Source of the DNA: Okamejei kenojei
Lineage: Eukaryota
Reading direction: 5' to 3'
Length of the DNA: 64,000 bases
NCBI GenBank assembly: GCA_035221665.1
Contig: CM069135.1
Location: forward strand, 39,122,001-39,186,000
The first letter of the stretch is position 1, and the number at the start of each line of letters is the position of its first letter. The notes under the pieces were generated by a model. It did not search any database, was not told the origin of the DNA, and saw only the letters and a list, made by a program, of their open reading frames with translations. The position numbers and the translations under genes are program-made. Of the stretch, positions 14,050-63,770 are shown one piece after another.

Positions 14050-16775
14050 ACAATTTCAGGATTACTGCCTGTGCCGCGTGACAGTGATAGTAGGAATGAA
14101 ATGAGGTGGAGGATAAATGCGTGGCTGAGGGACTGGTGCAGTGGGCAGGGATTCAAGTTTCTTGATCACTGGGACCTCTTTTGGGGAAGGCATGATCTGT
14201 ACACAAAGGACGGGTTGCACTTGAGCCCGAGGGGGACCAATATCCTGGCAGGGAGATTTGCAAAGGCTACTGGGGAGACTTTAAACTAGAAAGGCTGGGG
14301 GGAGACACTCGGGTAGAGGGGGCTAGGGGTCAGGGTGTCGGGCAAGAGGCAGAGAAGGGAAGCACTCGGATCCAAAATGTAGGCGAGAAAGATGAAAAAG
14401 ATAATAGACAGAGAATAAGGGATGGTGGGTTTCTAAAATGTGTATATTTTAATGCTAGGAGCATTGTAAGTAAGGTGGACGAACTTAGAGCCTGGATTGA
14501 CACCTGGAAATATGATGTTGTGGCAATCAGTGAAACATGGTTGCAGGAGGGCTGTGATTGGAAACTAAATATTCCAGGATTTCGCTGCTTCAGGTGTGAT
14601 AGAATTGGAGGGACCAGAGGGGGAGGTGTTGCATTGCTTGTCAGAGAAGATATTACAGCAGTGCTTTGGCAGGATAGATTAGAGGGCTCGTCTAGGGAGG
14701 CTATTTGGGTGGAACTGAATGTTTATGTCCCTGTTAGGTTGAAAGGAAATAGTAAAAATTGGAAAGAGCCATGGTTTTCAAGGGAAATTGGACACTTGTT
14801 TCGAAAAAAGAGAGATATCTACAATAATTATAGGAGGCATGGAGTAAATGAGGTGCTAGAGGAGTATAAAGAATGTAAAAAGAATCTTAAGAAAGAAATT
14901 AGGAAGGCTAAAAGAAGATATGAGGTTGCTTTGGCAAGAAAGGTGAAAGTAAACCCAAAGGGTTTCTACAGCTATATTAATAGCAAAAGGATAACGAGGG
15001 ATAAAATTGGACCATTAGAGAACCAGAATGGACAGCTATCTGCAGAGCCAAAAGAGATGGGAGAGATATTGAACAATTTCTTTTCTTCGGTATTCACCAA
15101 GGAGAAGGACATTGAACTCTGTGAGTTAAGGGGAAAAAGTAGAGTAGCTATGGAAACTATGAGATTCAAAGAGGAGGAAGTACTGACACTTTTGAAAAAT
15201 ATAAAAGTGGATAAGTCTCCAGGTCCTGACAGGATATTCCCTAGGACATTGAGGGAAGTTAGTGTAGAAATAGCAGGAGCTATGACAGAAATATTTCAAA
15301 TGTCATTAGAAACGGGAATAGTGCCGGAGGATTGGCGTACTGCGCATGTTGTTCCATTGTTTAAAAAAGGTTCAAAGAATAAACCTAGCAATTATAGACC
15401 TATTAGTTTGACGTCAGTGGTGGGCAAATTAATGGAAAGGATACTTAGAGATAATATATATAAGCATCTGGATAAACAGGGTCTGATCAGGAACAGTCAA
15501 CATGGATTTGTGCCTGGAAGGTCATGTTTGACAAACCTTCTTGAATTTTTTGAAGTGGTAACTAGGGAAATTGATGAGGGTAAAGCAGTGGATGTTGTCT
15601 ATATGGATTTCAGTAAGGCCTTTGATAAGGTTCCCCATGGAAGGTTGGTTAAGAAGGTTCAATCTTTGGGTGTTAATGGCGGAGTAGCAAGATGGATTCA
15701 ACAGTGGCTGAATGGGAGATGTCAGAAAGTAATGGTGGATGGCTGTTTGTCAGGTTGGAAGCCGGTGACCAGTGGGGTGCCTCAGGGATCTGTGTTGGGT
15801 CCACTGTTGTTTGTCATGTACATCAATGATCTGGATGATGGGGTGGAAAATTGGATAAGTAAGTATGCAGATGATACTAAGATAGGTGGTGTTGTGGATA
15901 ATGAAGTAGATTTTCAAAGTCTACAGAGAGATTTGGGCCATTTGGAAAAGTGGGCTGAAAGATGGCAGATGGAGTTTAATGCTGATAAGTGTGAAGTGCT
16001 ACATCTTGGCAGGACAAATCAAAATAGGACGTACATGGTAAATGGTAGGGAATTGAGGAATGCTGTGGAACAGAGGGATCTAGGAATAACTGTGCATAGT
16101 TCCCTGAAGGTGGAATCGCATGTAGATAGGGTGGTAAAGAAAGCCTTTGGTGTGCTGGCCTTTATAAATCAGAGCATTGAATATAGGAGTAGGGAAAGTA
16201 ATGTTAAAAATTGTACAAGGCATTGGTAAGACCAATTCTGGAGTATGGTGTACAATTTTGGTCGCCTAGTTATAGGAAGGATGTCAACAAAATAGAGAGA
16301 GTACAGAGGAGATTTACTAGAATGTTGCCAGGGTTCCAGCAACTATGTTACAGAGAAAAGTTGAACAAGTTAGGTCTTTATTCTTTGGAGCGCAGAAGGT
16401 TAAGGGGGGACTTGATTGAGGTCTTTAAAATGATGAAAGGGATAGACAGAGTTGACGTGGATACGTTTTTCCCATTGAGGGTAGGGAAGATTCAAACAAG
16501 AGGGCATGACATGAGAATTAAGGGACAGAAGTTTCGGGGTAACGTGAGGGGGAACTTCTTTACTCAGAGGGTGGTGGCTGTGTGGAATGTGCTTCCAGCA
16601 GAAGTGGTGGAGGCAGGATCGATTTTAACATTTAAGAGTAAAGTGGATAGGTATATGGACGTGAAGGGAATGGAGGGGTATGGTCTGAGTGCAGGTAGAT
16701 GGGACTAGGGGAAAACAAATGGTCGGCACGGACTGGAAGGGCCGAGAGGGCCTGTTTCCGTGCTGTAATTGTTAC
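14050..16775 (+). mobile_element. Young CR1 LINE: 3' part of esterase ORF1 plus ORF2 with an internal endonuclease deletion
   Basis: ORF1 C-terminus ...LYTKDGLHL (SGNH DxxH); ORF2 with [33 protein letters not shown] and YADD; intact 3'UTR. Confidence 0.95.
14475..16708 (+). pseudogene. CR1 ORF2 (APE endonuclease partly deleted, RT domain open, one frameshift near 16205)
   Basis: ORFs 14475-16229 and 16211-16708 overlap in different frames; the GDFN and SDH endonuclease motifs present in the twin copy (57140-57650) are absent here. Confidence 0.9.
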
Positions 16776-34380: not shown

Positions 34381-36290
34381 ATCCGTTATGATCTCTGATG
34401 TTTACAAAACTTGACCAAATATAAGTGAGCAATCTGGAGCCCTGTATGATAGTTCAGCTGAATGGCACGGAGACATTGATACTGGATTAATCCCAATCCA
34501 TTGCTCCTACTCCAGGCTGCATGCCAACTAAATGTTGCGTGCTAATTAACACAATGACATCCTGCAGTGTGCTAAGTGGAGTCTGGGCTAACTGCACTGT
34601 TTTGTGTAGCTGGATACCGAAGAAGAGAGCTAATGTCATGATTATCGACCATTGTTTAAAATCATTCTGCACCTCTTAAAGGGGAAGTACTGTACATGCT
34701 AGCTGCAACAGAGCTCATGTTTCAGTGAGGGAGTTCTTGGTAAGATGAGGATGATTCACACATTGTTCCTCACTGAACTTCCTGGATAGAAATGGGAATA
34801 TCCTTAGTTAAAATGATTTCTCCTCTTTATTCTCCTCTCTTTCCCTTCATCTTGTCCATTTGGCATGGCTCTGCAGATTCTCTGAGACATTTATTCCTCG
34901 GAGATTTGCTACCTTCTCACCCGTGTATAGGAGGAACCAATTTATGCAGAGGTCTTGAACTTTTTCACCAGATGGGCCTCTTCATAGACTTTGACACTGA
35001 ACAGAACTCAGAAAGCACCAATCATTTGTACAATCACTGCAACCAGGGCCGGCCTTAGGAGGTGCGGGGCCTAATTGGGAACAATTTTGGTGAGCCCCTG
35101 GTTCCCAGCCAAGGTCTGTAGAATCATAGAAATACAAATAAAGTCTATTATAGACTTCATATCTCTATGGTAGAATGGAAAGTAATCAAAATGTGCGCTT
35201 AAAAAGTGCCTGCGAGTTAATGGACCAAATAGATCTAAGCTACATTTCAATATAAAGTTGCATACATGTAAGCCTACAAGTAACCATCAAAATGTGTAGA
35301 TCACCTCTGAAAAGTACATAGTTACAATACCACTTGTTTTAGTGACTGTGAAATGAAAAAAAAAAATAACTAGATCCTGGAAAACCAATAACTATTGGTG
35401 AAAAAGCAGTCCAGGCATTACATTTTGGGCTTCAGTCCCATCCTACCCTTTGGGCTTCTACCCCATCTAAACTTAGATGTCAGTGTCTGTGTCTTAGTTG
35501 TGTGTATGTTAGCTGTCTGTGTGTGATGTGTGCGTTAGTTGTGAAGGGAAGGAGAGAAGGGAGGGAGGGAAGAAGGGAAGGGAGGAGGGAAGAAGGGAAG
35601 GGAGGGAGGGAAGAGAAAGAGAGAAGGGAGTGAGGGGGCCGGCAGCGGGAACAGATGCCGGGGTCCAGGCGGATGGGTGTGAGCTGAGGCCGAGGTTTGT
35701 AAACACTGCTCCAACCCCCGGCCCGGCCATCCCTGTATTGTTCACTGCGTCTCCCCATGGAGATAGAGGGGTGGAACCGGGGCTGTGTGTGTGAAGCACG
35801 GCGACTGGAGGAGTGGGAGCGCTGCCCCGGGACCGTGAGGGAACGACCTACCTCCTCCTTCTCCATTCCCCCTCACACCCCTTCCCCGTCTACCCCTTTC
35901 TTCCCCCTCCACCCCCCTAATCTCTCTCCACCCCTCTCCACCCCCCTCCACCTGGGGTAGATCTACCTGAGCTGAGAGTACATTACTCGAAAGCAAAGCT
36001 GAGAGATTGAAGGATAGACACAAAATGCAGCGGGTCAAGCGGCATTTCTGGACAAAAGGAATAGGTGACATTTCGGGTCGAGACCCGTCTTCAGACTGAG
36101 TCAGGGGAAAGAGGAACTCAAGCCACCACCACCCACCCCCACCCCCCCCCCCCCCCCCTCCCTCCGACACAGACATGGAGTGATCGCCGGCGCCCCCCTT
36201 TCTTTTGGTAACCATCGGGGGTTTTTTCCTTCGGAAAAATCCTTCAGGTTTTCAGGAAATTCTTTGGGTTTTTTTTTATTTCCCCCTTAC

Positions 36291-36395
36291 CATTTCCGTA
36301 CTTTTTCCATAGCTGCCATGACCCGTTTGATGTCATCCTTCGCCCTGCTCCTCAAAGCTGCTCCTGGTCTCGGCCCGCACCGATCTGCCGGACAT
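36291..36395 (-). pseudogene. BCL7A: Captured, frameshifted exon 1 of BCL7A (BAF/SWI-SNF subunit)
   Basis: ACC-ATG then [12 protein letters not shown][13-bp insertion][19 protein letters not shown]|gtaag. Removing the insertion gives 92 coding nt before the donor, as in BCL7A exon 1. KRVM favours BCL7A over BCL7B/C. Confidence 0.9.
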
Positions 36396-36402
36396 GGTGT
36401 GT

Positions 36403-36433
<31 letters not shown>
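36396..36433 (+). repeat. (TG)n microsatellite in the captured 5'UTR
   Basis: Direct reading. Confidence 0.95.
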
Positions 36434-36434
<1 letters not shown>

Positions 36435-37084
36435 TTGGCGGAGACTGAGGGGAGAAGCGCCAGCAGCAAGAGCGAGCGATCGTGCGGTCAGACGGTCGAA
36501 AGCAATGATGGTTAAGTTATGCCTCTCGCAGCATTGCGGGAGAACAGTTGCGGAGATCTAGGATCTTTTGATAACTCTAGCACGGGGCTCCCTTAGGCGC
36601 GGGGCCCAATTGGTAGCAATCGGTCCAATCGGCTTAAAGCCGGCCCTGACTGCAACAGTCAACAAAAATAAACTGGTCAACTATACTTAAACAATTGTGA
36701 CTCTCAGTTTCTGCCTGGATCTAACCTGATGCAGTATCTGAAGTCTCAAGGAGGGACCATGCTCTGGAGGGACGCTTCATTCTTGCTTTCAAATTCACAT
36801 CTTCATTGGTAAAGTCCACGAGAATAATAGCTGGGAAGTTGCCTGCAGCGAGAGACAATTTCAGAATTGCATTCGAGGAAATCCTGAGCTTGGTGGCATC
36901 AGTACAGAGGCATATTGGCCAGATTAGCTCTGTCTTTCTCAGCACTGTTGCTTTTTGACCCGCTAAATATTTATAGCATTCTCTGTTCTTACTTTGATGC
37001 TTCACCTGGAATACAAGAGAATACAAATTGGTTTTCTGTGTTTCATCAACATGGTGGGCACCAAGAAGTCCTTAAGGAACAAAA

Positions 37085-38809: not shown

Positions 38810-41800
38810 AGAGGTGTATAAAATCACGGGAGGAATAGATTGGGTGAATGCACAGAGTTTTATTTTGCCTAGGATTGGGGAATCAAGAACTAGAAGTCCT
38901 CCAAAATGAACATAGGGCGTTAGGCAAAATGGTAAAAGGCAGGACCTCCAGGATGGTACTCCTGGTGTCTTGTACTAGTGAGGGAAGGGTCAGGAATATA
39001 GGACAGATTAATTGGGCAGAGGCGACTTGTACAAGAGGGATGGTTTGCACCTGAACTGGAGGGGGAATCAATATCCTTGCAGACAGATTTGTTAGTGCTA
39101 CACGGATGGGTTTAAACTAGATTGGATAAACTAGATTAGAAACCTGCCCAAGAGAGGTACAGGACTGGCTGTTAAATGTTCCAGGGTACAGGTACTATAG
39201 GAGTGATAGAGGTGGGGGTAAAAAAGGAGGGGATGTTGCTAATTGATTAAGGAGAATGTTACCACAGCAGTTTGAGACAACATTATAAACTGGGGCTGTC
39301 ATGGTGCCAAGGGCTCAGACGGGGTGGAATTTGTCAAATGTGTTCAGGAAAGTTTCCTCGGGCAATAGGCCAATGGCCCTACAAGGGAGAGGGCAAAGCT
39401 TGATCTACTCTTAGGAAATTGGGATAGGCAAGTGACTGAAGTGTCTATGAGCATACCTTTGGGGACCTGAAACCACTGTATCACTAGCTTTAAAATAGTT
39501 ATGGATAAAGATAGGGTAGAGACACAAGTTAACATTCTGAACTCGGGCAAGGCCAGCTTTGATGGTATTTGACATCAGCTTGCTAAAGTTGATTGGAGTA
39601 GGTTGTTTGTGGGCAAAGGAACGTCCAGAAAGTTTGATGACAAAAGTTCAGGGCATGCATGTTCCTGTTAGAGTGAAGGGCAAGGCAGGTGGAAATAAGG
39701 AAGCTTAGATGAAGAGAGAAATTAAGGCTCCAGTCAGGATAAAGGAGGAGGCATGGTACAGGTATAGGTAGCTGGAATCAAGTGAATCACAGGAGGAGTT
39801 TTGGAAACCCAGGAGCATAATTAAGAAGGAAGTCAGGAGGGCAAAAACAGGGGCAGAACATACTGTAGCTCTTGGTAGATAATATTAAGGCAAATACAAA
39901 TAGATTTTTAATGTACATTAAGGGAAAGAGGGTAATTAGAGCATAAATGGGGCCGCTCAGAAACCAAAGCTGTCATTTCTGTGTGGAGCTGCAGGAGATG
40001 GACCTCAATTAATATTTCTCCTCTGTTTTTATCATGGAGAAATACACGAAGACTGGAGAACTTGGGACAATTAATGGAGATGCTGTGAGGATAGTCCGTC
40101 GAAGAGCTGGTGGACGTCCTAAGGCATATGAAAGTAAATAAACCTCCTGGGCCTGATCAGATATATCCAAAGACACTGTGGGAAGCTGGAAAAGAAATTA
40201 CAGGAGCCCGTGCTGAATTATATTAGACACTAGACACGGGTAAGATGCAGGAAAACTGGAGGGTGGCTAATGTTGTACCTCTATTTAAGAAGGGCTGCAA
40301 GAAAAAGCCTGCGAACTATAGACCAGTGAGCCTAACATCTGTCGGAAGCAAGTTACTGGAAAGGATTCTGAGGGAGACGATATATGCATTTTTTTTTTTG
40401 TTTGTTTATTTTTGTTAGAAGTAAGTACAGTAGTCTGGTACTTAAGTACCTAATACATAAATACATATTCTCATTCTTGTACAACTTCATACTTTTAGTT
40501 CAATAATAAAAGAACAGTGAGAGAAAAAAGAAATAAAGAGTGTCGGAATAGATAGACAAGCGAGTAGAAACAGAAAACAAAAACAAAAAAAAATAAAGGA
40601 CAGAGGTGAGAAGTTAAAAGATTGAAAGAGAAGGAAAAAGTAAAAAGAAAAGAGAGATTAGGAGAGATCTACCTATCTCATATTTTTGCCCATCCGTCAC
40701 CCAGTTCTAAACATTTAATTTCTAAGGTTATGTTATGTTGCACCATATGCTTGTATAAAGTTGATAAACGGAGACCAAATCTTTAAGAATTGGTCTACTT
40801 TGCCTAGTAAAAGGAATCTCATTTCTTCAAGATGTAGCGTTTCAGACATGTTTGAGATCCACATTTTGAATGTTGGCGTAGGTGCGTTTTTCCAAAATTT
40901 AAGTATAAGTTTTTTCGCTGTTATTAGACCATAATTAAGAAAAGCTTCTTGGAATATAGTTAGTTTACTTCCCTCTTCCATTTATCCAAAGATAATCAAT
41001 TCAGTATTGGGGTTCAATTTTGTGTTAAATAGTTTTGTAAAAATTCCAAAAATTTCATTCCAAAATGTATACAGTTTTGTACAAGAGACAAAGGAATGTG
41101 CTATAGTGCCATTTTGAGTTAGACATTTGTCGCAGATGGGGGAAACAATTGAAAATATTTTATTCAGTCTCGTTTTCGAATAATATAATCTATGTAAAAT
41201 TTTAAATTGAATAAGGTTATGTCTTACATTCATTGAACATTTGTTTACATATAATAAATTTTTATCCCATCTATCGTTCGGAATTTTTATCAATAACTCT
41301 TGTTCCCAGTCTCTTCTAATTGCTTCTGTCGTTGGTGTTTCTATATTTAGAATTATATTATATGTAAGATATTAAATTGCTTGATTCTGCCTTTCTATTC
41401 ATTCCTTCCTCCAATAAATCTGGGGTTAAAGTTTGATATCCTTGTATATACTTTTTCAAATAATCTTGAATTTGAAGGTATTTGAAATATTGATTACTTT
41501 TCAAATTATATTTTAGTTGTAATTGTTGGAATGATAAAAGTTTTCCCATTTCATACATATCTCCCATCATTTTAATTCCTATTCTTTCCCAATGGGTAAA
41601 CGTTTTATCAATAATGGATGGTTTGAATGAGGGATTATTAGCTATTGGAGAAAGAAGCAATAATTTTCTTAATTTTAAAGTTAATTTTATTTGTTTCCAA
41701 ATTCGTATTATACTATGAATAATTGGATTCTTCTTGTATATTACATTGTTCAGTTTTATCGGATATAGCTCCTATATTATAAGGGGAACAATCCTCTTTC

Positions 41801-44800
41801 TCCATTCTTATCCAATCTACCTGTTGGGCAGAACTGTCCAACCAGTAGATTATATTTTTAATATTCACTGCCCAAAATATTTAAATTTTTCTGTTGTAAT
41901 TCTAAAAGGGAATTTCAACAAACGTGTCGACTCATGATTGACACATGAGGTTTTATCGTCATGATTTCGCTTTTGTTCCAATTTATTCTATATCCTGAAA
42001 AAGAACCAAATTCTTCTATTAAATTTAGTATATTTGGTATGCTAGTTTGCGAATTTGTAATATATAATAATATGTCGTCTGCATATAATGAAATTTTATT
42101 ATTTGAGTGTTTGGTAATATACCCATGAATGTTCGGATGGCTTCTTATACTTTCAGCTAAAGGCTCTATCACTAGTGCAAAAAGCAGGGGCGATAATGCG
42201 CACCCCTGCCTATTGCCCCTTGCTAAATAGAATTTCGGGGATAATATATTATTAGTCAGTATTCTAGCCGTCGGCTTATCATATAGTAGTTTTACCCATG
42301 AAATAAAATTATCTCCCATATTAAAGTTTTCCAATACTTTGAATAAATATTGCCAATCTACTTGATTTCTGCATCCAATGAAATAATTGCTAGTTCTTCT
42401 TCAGTATTATGTGAGTACATTATATTAGACAACCGTCTCAAATTGTTAAATGAGTATCTCTTTGGTATGAACCCTGTTTGGTCCGGATTTATTAGTTTAC
42501 TAACATATTTACTCAATCTTCTCGCTAGGGTCTTCGTTAATATTTTTGGTCTGTATTTAGGAGTGCAATAGCTCTATATGAGCCTGGGTCTTCTAGATCT
42601 TTATCCTTTTTTGGTATAAGTGTAATAGTTCAGTTAGTGTTTCTGGTAGTTTATTTTCTTTAAAAATGTATATATATAAATCTTGCAACCGTGGAGAAAT
42701 TATTTCGTAGAATCTTTTATAGAATTCATTACTAAAGCCATCTGGTCCTGGGGTTTTGCCATTCTTCAACGAACTAATTGTTTCTTCTATTTCCTGTAGT
42801 GTAATCTGAGCTCTTAATGCCTCTTGTTCCACCATATTTAATTTTGGAAGATTACAGTTATCTAAGAAATTTGCAATTTGAGTATTATTTGCAGAAGTTT
42901 TCGATGTATATAAATTTTGATAAAATTGAGCAAATCTTTTATTAATATCTTTAGGTAGTGTTAGTAATTCCCCTTTGTCTGATTTAAGTTTAGTAATTGT
43001 ATTTTCTGCGTCCCTTTTTTCAGTTGGCGTGCTAGGAGTTTATGAGGTTTATCACCAAATTCAAAAGTTTCTTGTTTTGTAATTTGAAATAATCTCATTA
43101 TTCTGGCCGATAAAATTTTATTTAATTTATATTTTAGTATTATTATCTTATTATGTTTATCTATAGTTGGTTCTTTGGCATTTTCTAAATCTAATTGTCT
43201 AATTTCTTGTTCTAACTGCAATTGTTCAGTATTATTATTTTTATTTTGGAAAGCTTGGTATGAGATTATAATTCCTCTAATAAATGCCTTAAAAGTTTCC
43301 CATAATAAGGAGGGTGAAATATCTGGTGTATCATTTGTCTCAAAGAAGAATCTCATCTGCTCTTTTAAATATGTGCAACCTTGTGAGTTATTTAAAATTT
43401 GGGGGTTAAACCTCCAAAACGAATTTTTATCGGGCATTCCTTCTAATTTTAAAGAAAAAATTAACGGTGAATGATCAGAAATGACACTATTATGATATTT
43501 AGAATTATATGTATATGGAATTAGTTTTGTGTCCACTAAGAAATAATCAATACGTGAATATGTTTTATGTACTGTTGAATAAAATGAATATTCCCTACTT
43601 ACTGGGTTAGCGATTCTCCATACATCTGTTATATTAGTATTTTTCATGTATGTATTTAGGAGTTCACTCGTTTTAGATTTTATGTTAGTCCTTTTTTGTT
43701 TTGCTGATTTATCCAAATATGGATCTAAAACACAATTCAAATCTCCCCCTATTATCTCATTTTGATGATTAAGTTCTGAAATTATATCCAAAATTTTACT
43801 AAAATATTGGGGGTTGTCAAAATTAGGAGCATAAATATTTATCAAAGTAAGTGGAGTAGAATAAATGTCTCCCGTAACTATGACGTACCTCCCCTCTTTA
43901 TCTGCTATAGTATTCTTTAATTTAAATGGTATACCTTTACGAATGATAATAGCCGTGCCTCTAGATTTAGAAGTAAATGAAGAGTAGTATGTTTGCCCAA
44001 TCCAATTTGCCTTCAGTCTTATCTGTGTTTGATATTTCAGATGTGTCTCTTGTAAGAAAATAATGTCACTTTTTAAGGCTTTTAATTGGGCAAAGATCTT
44101 ACCCCTTTTAATTGGTTCATTAGCGCCCCTTATATTCCAACTACAGAACGTGATTCCTCCAGTTTTCTTTTGTTTATCATCTTGCATTATGAATCATGTT
44201 AATACCTTTACTTCATATGGTGCAACCAAGAACCTTATAACTCAAGATGAAGGATGATCATCCCCAGTTGTTAAGTTTTGTTGGCATCTCCCCTTCAGAA
44301 TAAACCTTAAGAAAGACCAGAAAGTGTAGAGTCGTGAAAAGATAATTAACAAACAAAAAGTGATATTATAATATCCAAAAATAAAGATATTATAATTAAA
44401 AACAAGCCACCAACAGGTGGTAGAAAAATTCTTATTGACTTCCGTAGATGTTCTTATATGTTTCGCTCTGCCCCCTTGACCAATTATTGTTAATTGGAAG
44501 AGAGAGCGATACAAAGTTCAAAATATTTTATATATTTGTTGAAATGAAACTTAAAATCCGACCTTGAATTAACATTCCAAAGATAAAATGCCTAGACAGT
44601 GCCTCGAGGATGGAATGCCATTTTAACAAGAGCAGTCTTTTTTATATGTTAAAAAAAAGAGACACAATCCTTTCTTTGTCGTTTCTCCTCGATGTTATCG
44701 TAGGAGACCAACTCCTAATGATCAGTAGTCCTCCTTTGTGATACTTTGTGCATATTTAAATGCCTCTTCTGGATCTGTGAATGCACGTTCAACATGGTTA

Positions 44801-62625: not shown

Positions 62626-63770
62626 TGGTTCCTGCCCTCCCGTGGTCCACATTTGCAACTGACATTTTGAGTGGCATGGCAAACAATACCTGGTTCTTCT
62701 CAACTGTATTTTGGTTGGTTTGACATCAATCTTCTTAGTAGCCCCACTTCTCATGGGGTAGTTCAGAAGCTGGCACGCCATTTCTCTGACCACAGAGCTC
62801 CATATCAACTACTATCTGACAATGGCAGTCAATTTACCAGCCAGCACTTCAAAGACTTTGCTACACACTGGGGTTTTCGTCACATCACCAGCAGCCCTGA
62901 GTACCCTCAGTCAAATGGACTAGCTGAACGTGCCATCAGGAGTGCCAAACAATTAATGGAATGGTTCCACAGAGCAAAATCAGATATGTACCTGGACCTG
63001 CTTAACTTGCGCAACATCTCCCGCGACCCGACATTGGGTTCACCCGCTCAACGTCTGATGTCAAGGCAGACCCGAGCCGCATTGCCTGTAGCGAAATAGG
63101 CATTGGTACCGTATGTGTTCCCACCATGAGAAGTCCAGTCCAGACTACAACAAAAGCGCGACGTTCAGAAAGGGTGGTATGATAGGACGAGCAGACCGCT
63201 TCCACCGCCAGCCGAGGGACAGGTAGTGCGTCTGCAAATCGACGAAGGTCACGACCGCCTCGGTGTCATTTCTGGAACTGCCTCTGAGCCACGTTCATAC
63301 TTGGTCAATTCCGATGGCGGCACCAACAAACGTAATAAGCAACATATCCTGCCTGTGAATGAGCCAGCACCACCTCCATACTATCCAGACCACACAAGTG
63401 TACTTCCATCCACATCCAGCAGCATTGCCCCAACTGCACCAGCCCGACAACCTGTTTCTGATCTGGTTACTTTCCCTATGGCCACGCTGCCTCCACCTGT
63501 GCCAAAGTCTCCTGTTTCGTCACCGGGAATGCCGTTTCAATCTCCAATACCTACATCACCACCGATCGTGTCCCCAGTGATGGGAGGAGATGCAGGACTG
63601 TACTGTACGTGCACAGGGCGTGTTTGAAGCCCACCGTAAAGTACCCGGGCTATGTTTGACCTTCCTCCAGTTTATTGACACATACGATATGTACTCTGTA
63701 TAATCAGTAGTTTTACATTTACATTTAATTCTTTAAGAGGGAGGATGTAGATTTGTGTGTTAGTACTATA

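Follow-up and report, generated by a model that had tools for sequence, protein, structure and literature searches.

The window, a 64,000-nucleotide stretch of the Okamejei kenojei genome, contains a 1,605-bp non-autonomous hAT element (35044–36648; family A) that carries positions −81 to +222 of BCL7A, counted from the start codon. On the evidence set out below, we consider it probable that this cargo sits inside an insert of a second, hAT-like family, B; that B likely captured it first, at the DNA level; that the composite was copied to ~60 sites, likely by the transposase of family A; and that the captured exon is likely decaying neutrally.

Structure of the window element

A perfect 8-bp target-site duplication (TSD) flanks the element, and its terminal inverted repeats (TIRs), which agree at 14 of 16 bases, are those of family A (Table 1). 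The exact TIR 10-mer CAGGGCCGGC occurs in the window solely at the two element ends; with up to one mismatch there are 5 matches, against 1.58 expected. A Pfam scan of 25 frames recognized no transposase family in any of them, the element's own scanned frame included, and no host gene in the window. The 11 frames with matches comprised nine window frames of RT/endonuclease type, one integrase core and the parent exon (BCL_N). These results bear out the initial annotation where it described a hAT-type element with 16-bp TIRs, an 8-bp TSD and no transposase. The left flank of the insertion is single-copy in the genome, and a paralogous empty site was not found. A LINE-remnant origin of the flanks was also considered and was unsupported (best E 0.035).

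Read on the minus strand, the element presents a presumed 5′UTR that contains a (CA)n tract, then the ATG (36395) and, past the exon, a GT donor. Within the MITE body, the portion at ~35044–35470 is common to the right end of transposase-bearing A copies, and 35641–35980 is a GC-rich filler present in MITE copies only. The source of this filler was not found, 27 of the 30 best loci showing either the A end motif or the empty-site motif. Two filler loci, L228 and L239, are without the A end motif. The palindromic repeat at 35998–36115 may be of Penelope-like origin.

Table 1 Coordinates of the window element, its cargo and its flanking duplications.
Feature	Position	Strand	Remark
TSD ACTGCAAC, left copy	35036..35043	.	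Flank single-copy genome-wide
Family A TIR	35044..35059	+	TIR comparison
Family A MITE body	35044..35980	-	Comparison with other A copies
Insert-flanking 8-bp duplication, second copy	35981..35988	-	GAGTAATG here, GAGTAATC at the empty site
Family B insert right end, decayed	35989..35997	-	Most copies end CTTTG
Piece of abundant palindromic repeat with hammerhead-like core (CTGAAGA, short stem, GAAATGTC)	35998..36115	-	
BCL7A intron 1 start (parent +93..+222)	36116..36290	-	GT donor 36290-36289; subfamily-specific small duplications
BCL7A coding exon 1 copy	36291..36395	-	105 nt against 92 nt in parent; frameshifted, stop after 20 codons
13-bp insertion: 8-bp duplication AGGAGCAG around CTTTG	36345..36365	-	Read as likely family B footprint
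BCL7A upstream of ATG (parent -81..-1, presumed 5′UTR)	36396..36502	-	(CA)n tract expanded
Family B left end, rearranged	36503..36569	-	
Insert-flanking 8-bp duplication, first copy	36570..36577	-	GAGTTATC here
Family A left end, 79 nt, including TIR 36633-36648	36570..36648	-	86-87% identity to left end of transposase-bearing A copies
TSD ACTGCAAC, right copy	36649..36656	.	TSD comparison

The parent gene and the limits of the captured piece

Mapping of shark BCL7A proteins placed the parent gene, with six exons, on the minus strand of contig C25 (17504359–17484592). An exon-2 motif has two genome matches, on contigs C25 and C26, and the insertion-free exon-1 pattern has 68 exact matches, one of which sits 6.4 kb upstream of the C25 exon 2. 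Exon 1 of this parent matches Pfam BCL_N and encodes 31 residues, all 31 identical to BCL7A in PDB; the protein encoded by exons 3–6 is closest to those of batoids, being 90.9% identical to that of Rhinoraja, 90.3% to that of Pristis and 83–85% to those of two sharks. The paralogue exon on C26 is 77% identical to the C25 parent exon.

Homology between element and parent spans −81/−82 to about +222, and in B, C and long-A copies all matches to the parent exon-1 region fall within −82 to +221. The comparison with the multi-exon parent, which the initial annotation had proposed, gave these limits. Its claim that the 5′UTR, exon 1 and donor of BCL7A were captured holds for the cargo, but the captor was likely family B and not this hAT, as we argue below. 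The description of a promoter cassette is unsupported: the parent's GC boxes (−108 and −101) and its CpG-rich upstream stretch lie outside the captured piece, which, judged by its limits, may include an initiator and would lack the upstream promoter. Nor does the copy encode the peptide that had been read from it, as the 13-bp insertion shifts the frame to give 20 residues and then a stop. The ACC-ATG context and the 'AAMEK' string are indeed present, but as changes specific to this copy; the parent reads AGC-ATG at the start codon and has Ile at the position of the Met. A further diagnostic base is exon position 21, which is G in the copies and A in the parent.

Within 40 kb around the parent, the A-type TIR 10-mer (up to one mismatch) is absent, and no B element stands today at parent −82, where a clear footprint was likewise not seen. 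The exon and donor in the window closely resemble those of the parent, as they would if the window held the real BCL7A gene flanked by chance TIR remnants, or an assembly artefact. We regard either as next to impossible: the complete gene is on C25, and no exon-2-like peptide, which the real gene would have shown, was found in the window or in 10 kb on each side. Against an artefact, three independent runs from the same species repeat the −82 junction, their loose ends at that base running into the B repeat, and depth is high over the cargo. In these runs, which consist of contigs that are probably DNA, summed contig depth (not a measure of copy number) was 4–5 on single-copy parent DNA in the two runs covering it, from which it rose to ~400 over the cargo, where the values were 300–570. 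The contigs showed no joints and, as probable DNA, do not bear on expression.

Loaded, empty and transposase-bearing copies of family A

Altogether 41 A elements have 8-bp TSDs whose two copies differ by at most one mismatch: 15 loaded with cargo, each with a different TSD, and 26 cargo-free, with TSDs of their own. The window element therefore moved after it was loaded, as had been proposed from the single copy. At the same threshold, for which a chance match is expected at ~5 × 10−4 per pair, the TSDs around exon cargo are all distinct in every family (15 of 15 in A, 9 of 9 in B and 3 of 3 in C, a third family described below). A DNA search yielded 58 matches, 40 of its 1903 candidates having been scored. 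A pattern for the loading site had 169 matches; among the 100 listed, 74 were empty, 20 filled and 6 variant, the empty junction reading CTACTC and the filled one AAAAG. Capture-recapture (28 and 20 sites, 16 shared) gave a rough ~35 loaded copies on contigs C1–C13, which extrapolates to a similarly rough ~60 genome-wide. The dispersal of the cassette that had been anticipated is supported.

At three loci, L205 (3,636 bp), L206 and L170, a Dimer_Tnp_hAT match lies in an element with both A ends and a TSD, and L208, whose TSD has two mismatches, matches both Dimer_Tnp_hAT and DUF4371. All the A transposase copies found are broken, with frames of up to 338 aa in related copies. In L205 and L206 the sequence runs on across the empty loading site without cargo. 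Because transposase-bearing A copies exist, and because these two are continuous across the empty site, we conclude that A is a hAT family and that the cargo is an insertion into it. Family A is a non-autonomous hAT that shares its ends with elements coding for hAT transposase; it may belong to the hAT-Tip100 group, with which the DUF4371 and dimerization-domain layout and the CAGGGCCGG ends agree. The window element fits the definition of a Pack-TIR, having a host piece between TIRs and an identifiable TE-free parent and having moved after capture. It departs from that definition in that the outer element is not the capturer, the cargo having come within a B insert.

The B insert and family C

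The cargo in A is a B insert with its own 8-bp duplication. An intact B start, CAAAGATCC, is retained in L026, and in most copies the insert ends in CTTTG. The exon also occurs in free-standing B elements of 0.8–2.2 kb, enclosed by the TIRs of B and with nine different TSDs. The 15 TSD-bounded B elements with TIRs indicate a target of nTnnnnAn, the preference for T at position 2 and A at position 7 holding in 27 of 30 half-sites. At locus L238, a cargo-free mini-B with an 8-bp TSD occupies exactly the A loading site (GAGTAATC).

In B copies the cargo forms two inverted arms (−82 to +82 and −82 to +222) around a palindromic spacer with hammerhead-like cores. The spacer has 167 exact matches, and BCL7A sequence adjoins it in 29 of 30 loci examined. 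Both arms are kept, the left one shortened, in the long A copies (L029, L030, L089, L098 and L131); the inverted arm is missing from the short form, to which the window copy belongs and which probably arose from the two-armed long form through inversion and deletion.

The exon piece is also carried by a third family, C, in three TSD-bounded copies; its TIRs and 8-bp TSDs, like those of B, are of hAT type. At 10 sites (14 rows, minus one duplicate and three false matches), an empty A element has inserted into the G-run of C-copy cargo. At the 5′ junction, with a B repeat called at up to 4 mismatches of 17, the B terminal repeat adjoins parent −82/−81 in 81 of 116 cases; 23 show a short-A remnant and 12 other forms. 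A tree of the cargo (50 rows, left-arm and incomplete copies excluded) is star-like, with 6 of 47 inner branches starred and bootstrap unsettled; within it the short form is a supported clade (97/92), and it gives no order among B, C and long A. No cognate transposase for B or C was seen in the 30 best DUF4371 and 30 best Dimer_Tnp_hAT loci and wider stretches around them, from searches that scored 150 of 219 and 150 of 1801 candidates, respectively.

These observations bear on whether family A itself took up exon 1 and the promoter with it. Its TIRs and TSD are the outermost ones, and A moved the cargo many times, as such a captor would. Nevertheless, B ends and a separate 8-bp duplication bound the cargo, and most A copies have the corresponding site empty; B and C elements that lie outside A share the breakpoints; and the upstream GC boxes are missing. 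We judge direct capture by A to be highly improbable. The window hAT was not the captor, since its cargo is another family's insert and the site is empty in most A copies and in the transposase-bearing ones.

A model for capture and hand-off

We propose the following order of events. A B element would once have stood at BCL7A −82, because A, B and C cargo alike has the B terminal repeat directly against this base. In a second step, template switching during repair synthesis may have carried the B repeat, along with ~300 bp of flank, over into a different B element, and fold-back during copying would have produced the second, inverted arm. Gap filling and template switching have been proposed for the origin of Pack-TIRs in the available text of one survey (PMC8277862), and the repair-synthesis step agrees with those models. 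Cargo-bearing B elements moved, each with its own 8-bp TSD. One of them presumably entered an A MITE at GAGTAATC, cargo entered family C, and empty A elements entered the cargo G-run within C copies; these structures are all present, and their order is the probable one. A later B insertion in the exon would have left the frame-breaking 13-bp footprint, and internal rearrangement would have removed the inverted arm, founding the window's subfamily; here it is the causes that we suppose. In the sampled copies coding constraint is now absent, and the A transposases found are all broken.

Several observations sit uneasily with this model. Parent −82 bears neither a B element nor a clear footprint today, and the 8 bases at −81 meet only half of the B target preference. 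The loading site fits neither B target position, yet L238 shows that B has used it. The transposase loci examined yielded no autonomous partner of B or C, and the cargo tree leaves B, C and long A unordered. Finally, the cargo of B copies has hammerhead-like repeats on either side, making an RNA route conceivable: a Penelope-like (PLE) or retrozyme element would have reverse-transcribed unspliced BCL7A 5′ RNA, template switching would have made the inverted arm, and hAT MITEs would have been carriers only afterwards. The B-copy cargo does lie, with its inverted arm, between two direct repeats with a hammerhead-like core ~400 nt apart, and its 5′ limit could be a transcription start. In the portions of the sources available to us, the stem III loop of PLE hammerheads is palindromic and very short (PMC6765202) and animal retrozyme monomers measure 150–450 bp (PMC7229834). 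However, it is a DNA-transposon terminal repeat, not the hammerhead repeat, that adjoins −82, and every delimited carrier has TIRs and an 8-bp TSD. The annotated loci showed no tandem monomer arrays, with at most two same-strand cores around the cargo; a search of 8 loci against Rfam (E ≤ 1) recognized no hammerhead; and most copies have lost the intact palindromic loop (TGTC 87, CGTC 37). The definition of non-LTR retrozymes, tandem monomers each with a type I hammerhead, does not apply, the cores lying within TIR elements. The B-type repeats and 8-bp TSDs speak against a Penelope or retrozyme origin; a GIY-YIG search gave mostly another family, with the cargo-linked hammerhead-like repeat in only 2 of the 30 best loci. 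Capture through RNA is in our view unlikely. The junctions fit capture at the DNA level, and in this respect, too, the initial annotation, which argued against retrocopying, is supported.

Probable footprints and fate of the exon copies

The 13-bp insertion in the window exon is made up of CTTTG, the five bases with which B ends, within an 8-bp duplication. L106 has an insertion of this 8 + 5 form at an unrelated position, which in L060 is occupied by a 30-bp mini-B; L029, L030, L035, L082, L156 and L238 hold longer mini-B forms. Given that it contains the five terminal bases of B, and that 8 + 5 and mini-B forms occur elsewhere, the insertion is likely a B footprint. It is found in 31 of 97 sampled copies, and so is no base-calling error, contrary to one explanation that had been entertained; these amount to 31 of the 36 sampled A-carried copies. 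Five A-carried copies are free of it, and the four that are in the tree sit within the short-form clade.

A 16-mer of the exon has 243 exact matches in the genome and none in the control. In three samples picked by other patterns it was exact in 11 of 27, 27 of 72 and 8 of 27 copies, and the count combined with these fractions gives an estimate of ~600–820 exon copies genome-wide. Synonymous changes numbered 77 among 282, against 81.2 ± 7.5 expected, and 28 against 31.7 ± 4.7 in insertion-bearing copies alone. No coding constraint is seen in the sampled copies, and this family-wide test is compatible with a few useful ones. Divergence from the commonest letter over 97 copies was 2.8–4.8% at non-CpG and 9.5–15% at CpG positions, low values in part, as loci were chosen by exact patterns or best scores and are biased to conservation. 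The same bias raises the fractions of intact exons, which were 0 of 31 for insertion-bearing copies, 2 of 5 for insertion-free A, 9 of 15 for B and 11 of 27 for C. Copies of the window's kind thus do not provide the usable first coding exon that had been envisaged. The GT donor is kept in 72 of 78 full-length copies. The exon copies are likely decaying neutrally, without function.

Some copies might nevertheless be in use: they could give rise to hairpin small RNAs that target BCL7A, supply splice donors to host genes or encode a 31-residue nucleosome-binding micropeptide. Exon 1 is followed by an in-frame TAA past the donor, so that intact copies hold a 31-codon ORF, and ATG, frame and GT are kept in 22 of the 47 sampled B, C and insertion-free A copies. 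A two-armed B copy is predicted to fold as one long hairpin (−506.8 kcal/mol, z = −31.6). In human BCL7A, according to the accessible part of one report, R11, R13 and K15 form an arginine-anchor helix that binds the nucleosome acidic patch (PMC13161475); exon 1 codes for this helix. On the other side, an excess of synonymous change is absent across copies, the upstream GC boxes lie outside the captured piece, and no batoid chimeric protein appeared among the 120 best of 879 matches. The window copy has one arm only, and its frameshift removes R13 and K15. That any copies are in use strikes us as unlikely; neutral decay is the reading we retain.

Relation to known systems

In plants, Pack-MULE and Pack-TYPE elements carry GC-rich gene 5′ fragments, often rearranged, in non-autonomous TIR elements of another superfamily, and small-RNA crosstalk has been described for them. 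The publications covered by our search gave no account of this BCL7A-carrying transposon family. Closest among animals are the Pack-TIRs of Tan et al. (2021, PMC8277862), in particular Pack-hAT-N8_XT with the CAPSL 5′UTR, which resembles our element in being a non-autonomous hAT with a host 5′ fragment, a TE-free parent and several TSDs. As far as the available text of that survey goes, it lists 370 Pack-TIRs in 100 genomes, with four multicopy cases, Pack-hAT-N8_XT having three copies; the elephant shark has none, and BCL7 is absent from its supplements. Here, by contrast, we estimate ~60 copies in one family and 600–800 over three, with hand-off between families and reciprocal nesting. We therefore describe a variant of the Pack-TIR in which copy number is unusually high, the cargo has passed from one family to another and the outer element is a second-hand carrier.

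Amplification on a similar scale has been described elsewhere. HelibatN3 of Myotis lucifugus, as described in the part of the report available to us (PMC4224331), spread the NUBPL 5′UTR, exon 1 and intron 1 start at about a thousand copies, with serial captures in one element lineage. It is a rolling-circle Helitron that took the promoter and splices into a host transcript, whereas the present carriers are cut-and-paste hAT MITEs, lack the upstream GC boxes and are known to us as DNA sequence. A hAT of the fungus Pseudocercospora fijiensis, in the accessible account (PMC6710886), amplified a housekeeping-gene sequence, histone H3, to hundreds of copies, all dead save the original; it differs in having one complete hAT as its carrier and in inactivation by RIP. 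Non-LTR retrozymes and PLE pseudo-LTRs, so far as their available descriptions extend (PMC7229834; bioRxiv 10.64898/2026.07.22.740005), share with the B copies hammerhead-like cores ~400 nt apart around the cargo. The B copies differ from them in having no noted tandem arrays, in moving with TIRs and 8-bp TSDs and in their altered core loop, and the window copy has a single core.

Implications

Multicopy gene capture by cut-and-paste transposons is reported to be rare in animals, and here a single 300-bp piece has reached an estimated ~600–800 copies. A regulatory role for some of these is conceivable. If small RNAs arise, two-armed B copies would be a better source than the one-armed window copy, and if transcribed they are predicted to form long BCL7A hairpins. 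We further speculate, with little confidence, that an exon of this BAF subunit has been relayed through three cooperating hAT families, that two-armed copies may be ready hairpin genes and intact one-armed copies ready genes for a 31-residue anchor peptide or splice-on N-terminal tags, and that some might be expressed, regulating or mimicking BCL7A in batoids. Regardless, work on BCL7A in these fishes, whether annotation, probes or guide design, will be confounded by the exon copies. One genome retains the intermediates of the process: carriers that are empty or bear a transposase, a mini-insert without cargo at the loading site, both the long and the short forms, and families nested in each other; and since these survive, the suggested mechanism, in which a repeat and its flank are captured by template switching and then piggy-back on other families, would be testable across skate genomes.

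Coding remnants and filler in the window

No host gene was recognised within the 64-kb window, which also contains frames of LINE-type reverse transcriptase and endonuclease, plus an integrase-core fragment. The non-autonomous family A hAT elements (MITEs), including the window copy, hold a GC-rich filler that A copies with a transposase lack. This filler may represent another, older capture of host sequence; its source was not found among 40 scored of 1194 candidates.

Fate and multiplication of the BCL7A cargo

Four short-form A copies lacking the frame-breaking 13-bp insertion in the captured BCL7A exon (sampled loci L018, L023, L024 and L025) fall, with weak support, at separate positions within the insertion-bearing clade. 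These scattered placements suggest either that the 13 bp were lost exactly and repeatedly between their 8-bp repeats, or that intact copies converted insertion-bearing ones. Tiny palindromic relics of the hAT-like family B, 5–40 bp long and with 8-bp duplications, occur at L035, L055, L060, L082, L140, L155, L156 and L238, the first of them within an intron of the parental BCL7A gene. Local segmental or tandem duplication also multiplied cargo elements (L072; L009 and L013; L048 and L049), leaving near-identical neighbours with the same flanks.

Other transposase-like and ribozyme-like features

GIY-YIG matches are arrayed in tandem at ~6 kb spacing near the ends of three contigs; two of the matches lie in open frames of 759 aa, and the series look like young telomere-near Penelope-like arrays. 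hAT domains lie in long open frames at L214 (667 aa), L215 (709 aa), L196 (706 aa) and L204 (1217 aa), with no family A, B or C ends nearby; these are candidate hAT transposases, either domesticated or otherwise active. The flank of one locus contains an HDV-type ribozyme-like Rfam match (34.7 bits, E 0.0053, under the gathering score).

Coordinates of features in the window and at sampled loci (L) and contigs (C)
Feature	Location	Position
LINE-type and integrase-core frames	window	14196-16229, 40982-44193, 62671-63099
GC-rich filler	window	35641-35980
Duplicated cargo locus L072	C28	4.633-4.643 Mb
GIY-YIG tandem L265-L268	C43	8-31 kb
GIY-YIG tandem L248 + L269-L271	C111	
GIY-YIG tandem L259-L260	C17	
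HDV-type ribozyme-like match	L016	394-460
Family C end in A-type transposase copy (example)	L208	3525-3597
A element inside C copy	L063	2196-2589

Nesting among repeat families

In a subset of A-type transposase copies, all without BCL7A cargo (L193, L207, L208, L209 and L211), a family C end lies a short way upstream of the transposase frame, at a position common to these copies; this is another instance of nesting between A and C. At L063 an A element with an internal inverted duplication sits inside a C copy; this A element also holds a young insertion of a palindromic hammerhead-like repeat (97% arm identity). Several A elements without cargo (L221, L227, L229, L232, L241 and L245) have the left flank GGTGAGGC in common and right duplications that differ or are missing, so that family A itself seems to ride within a further repeat family.
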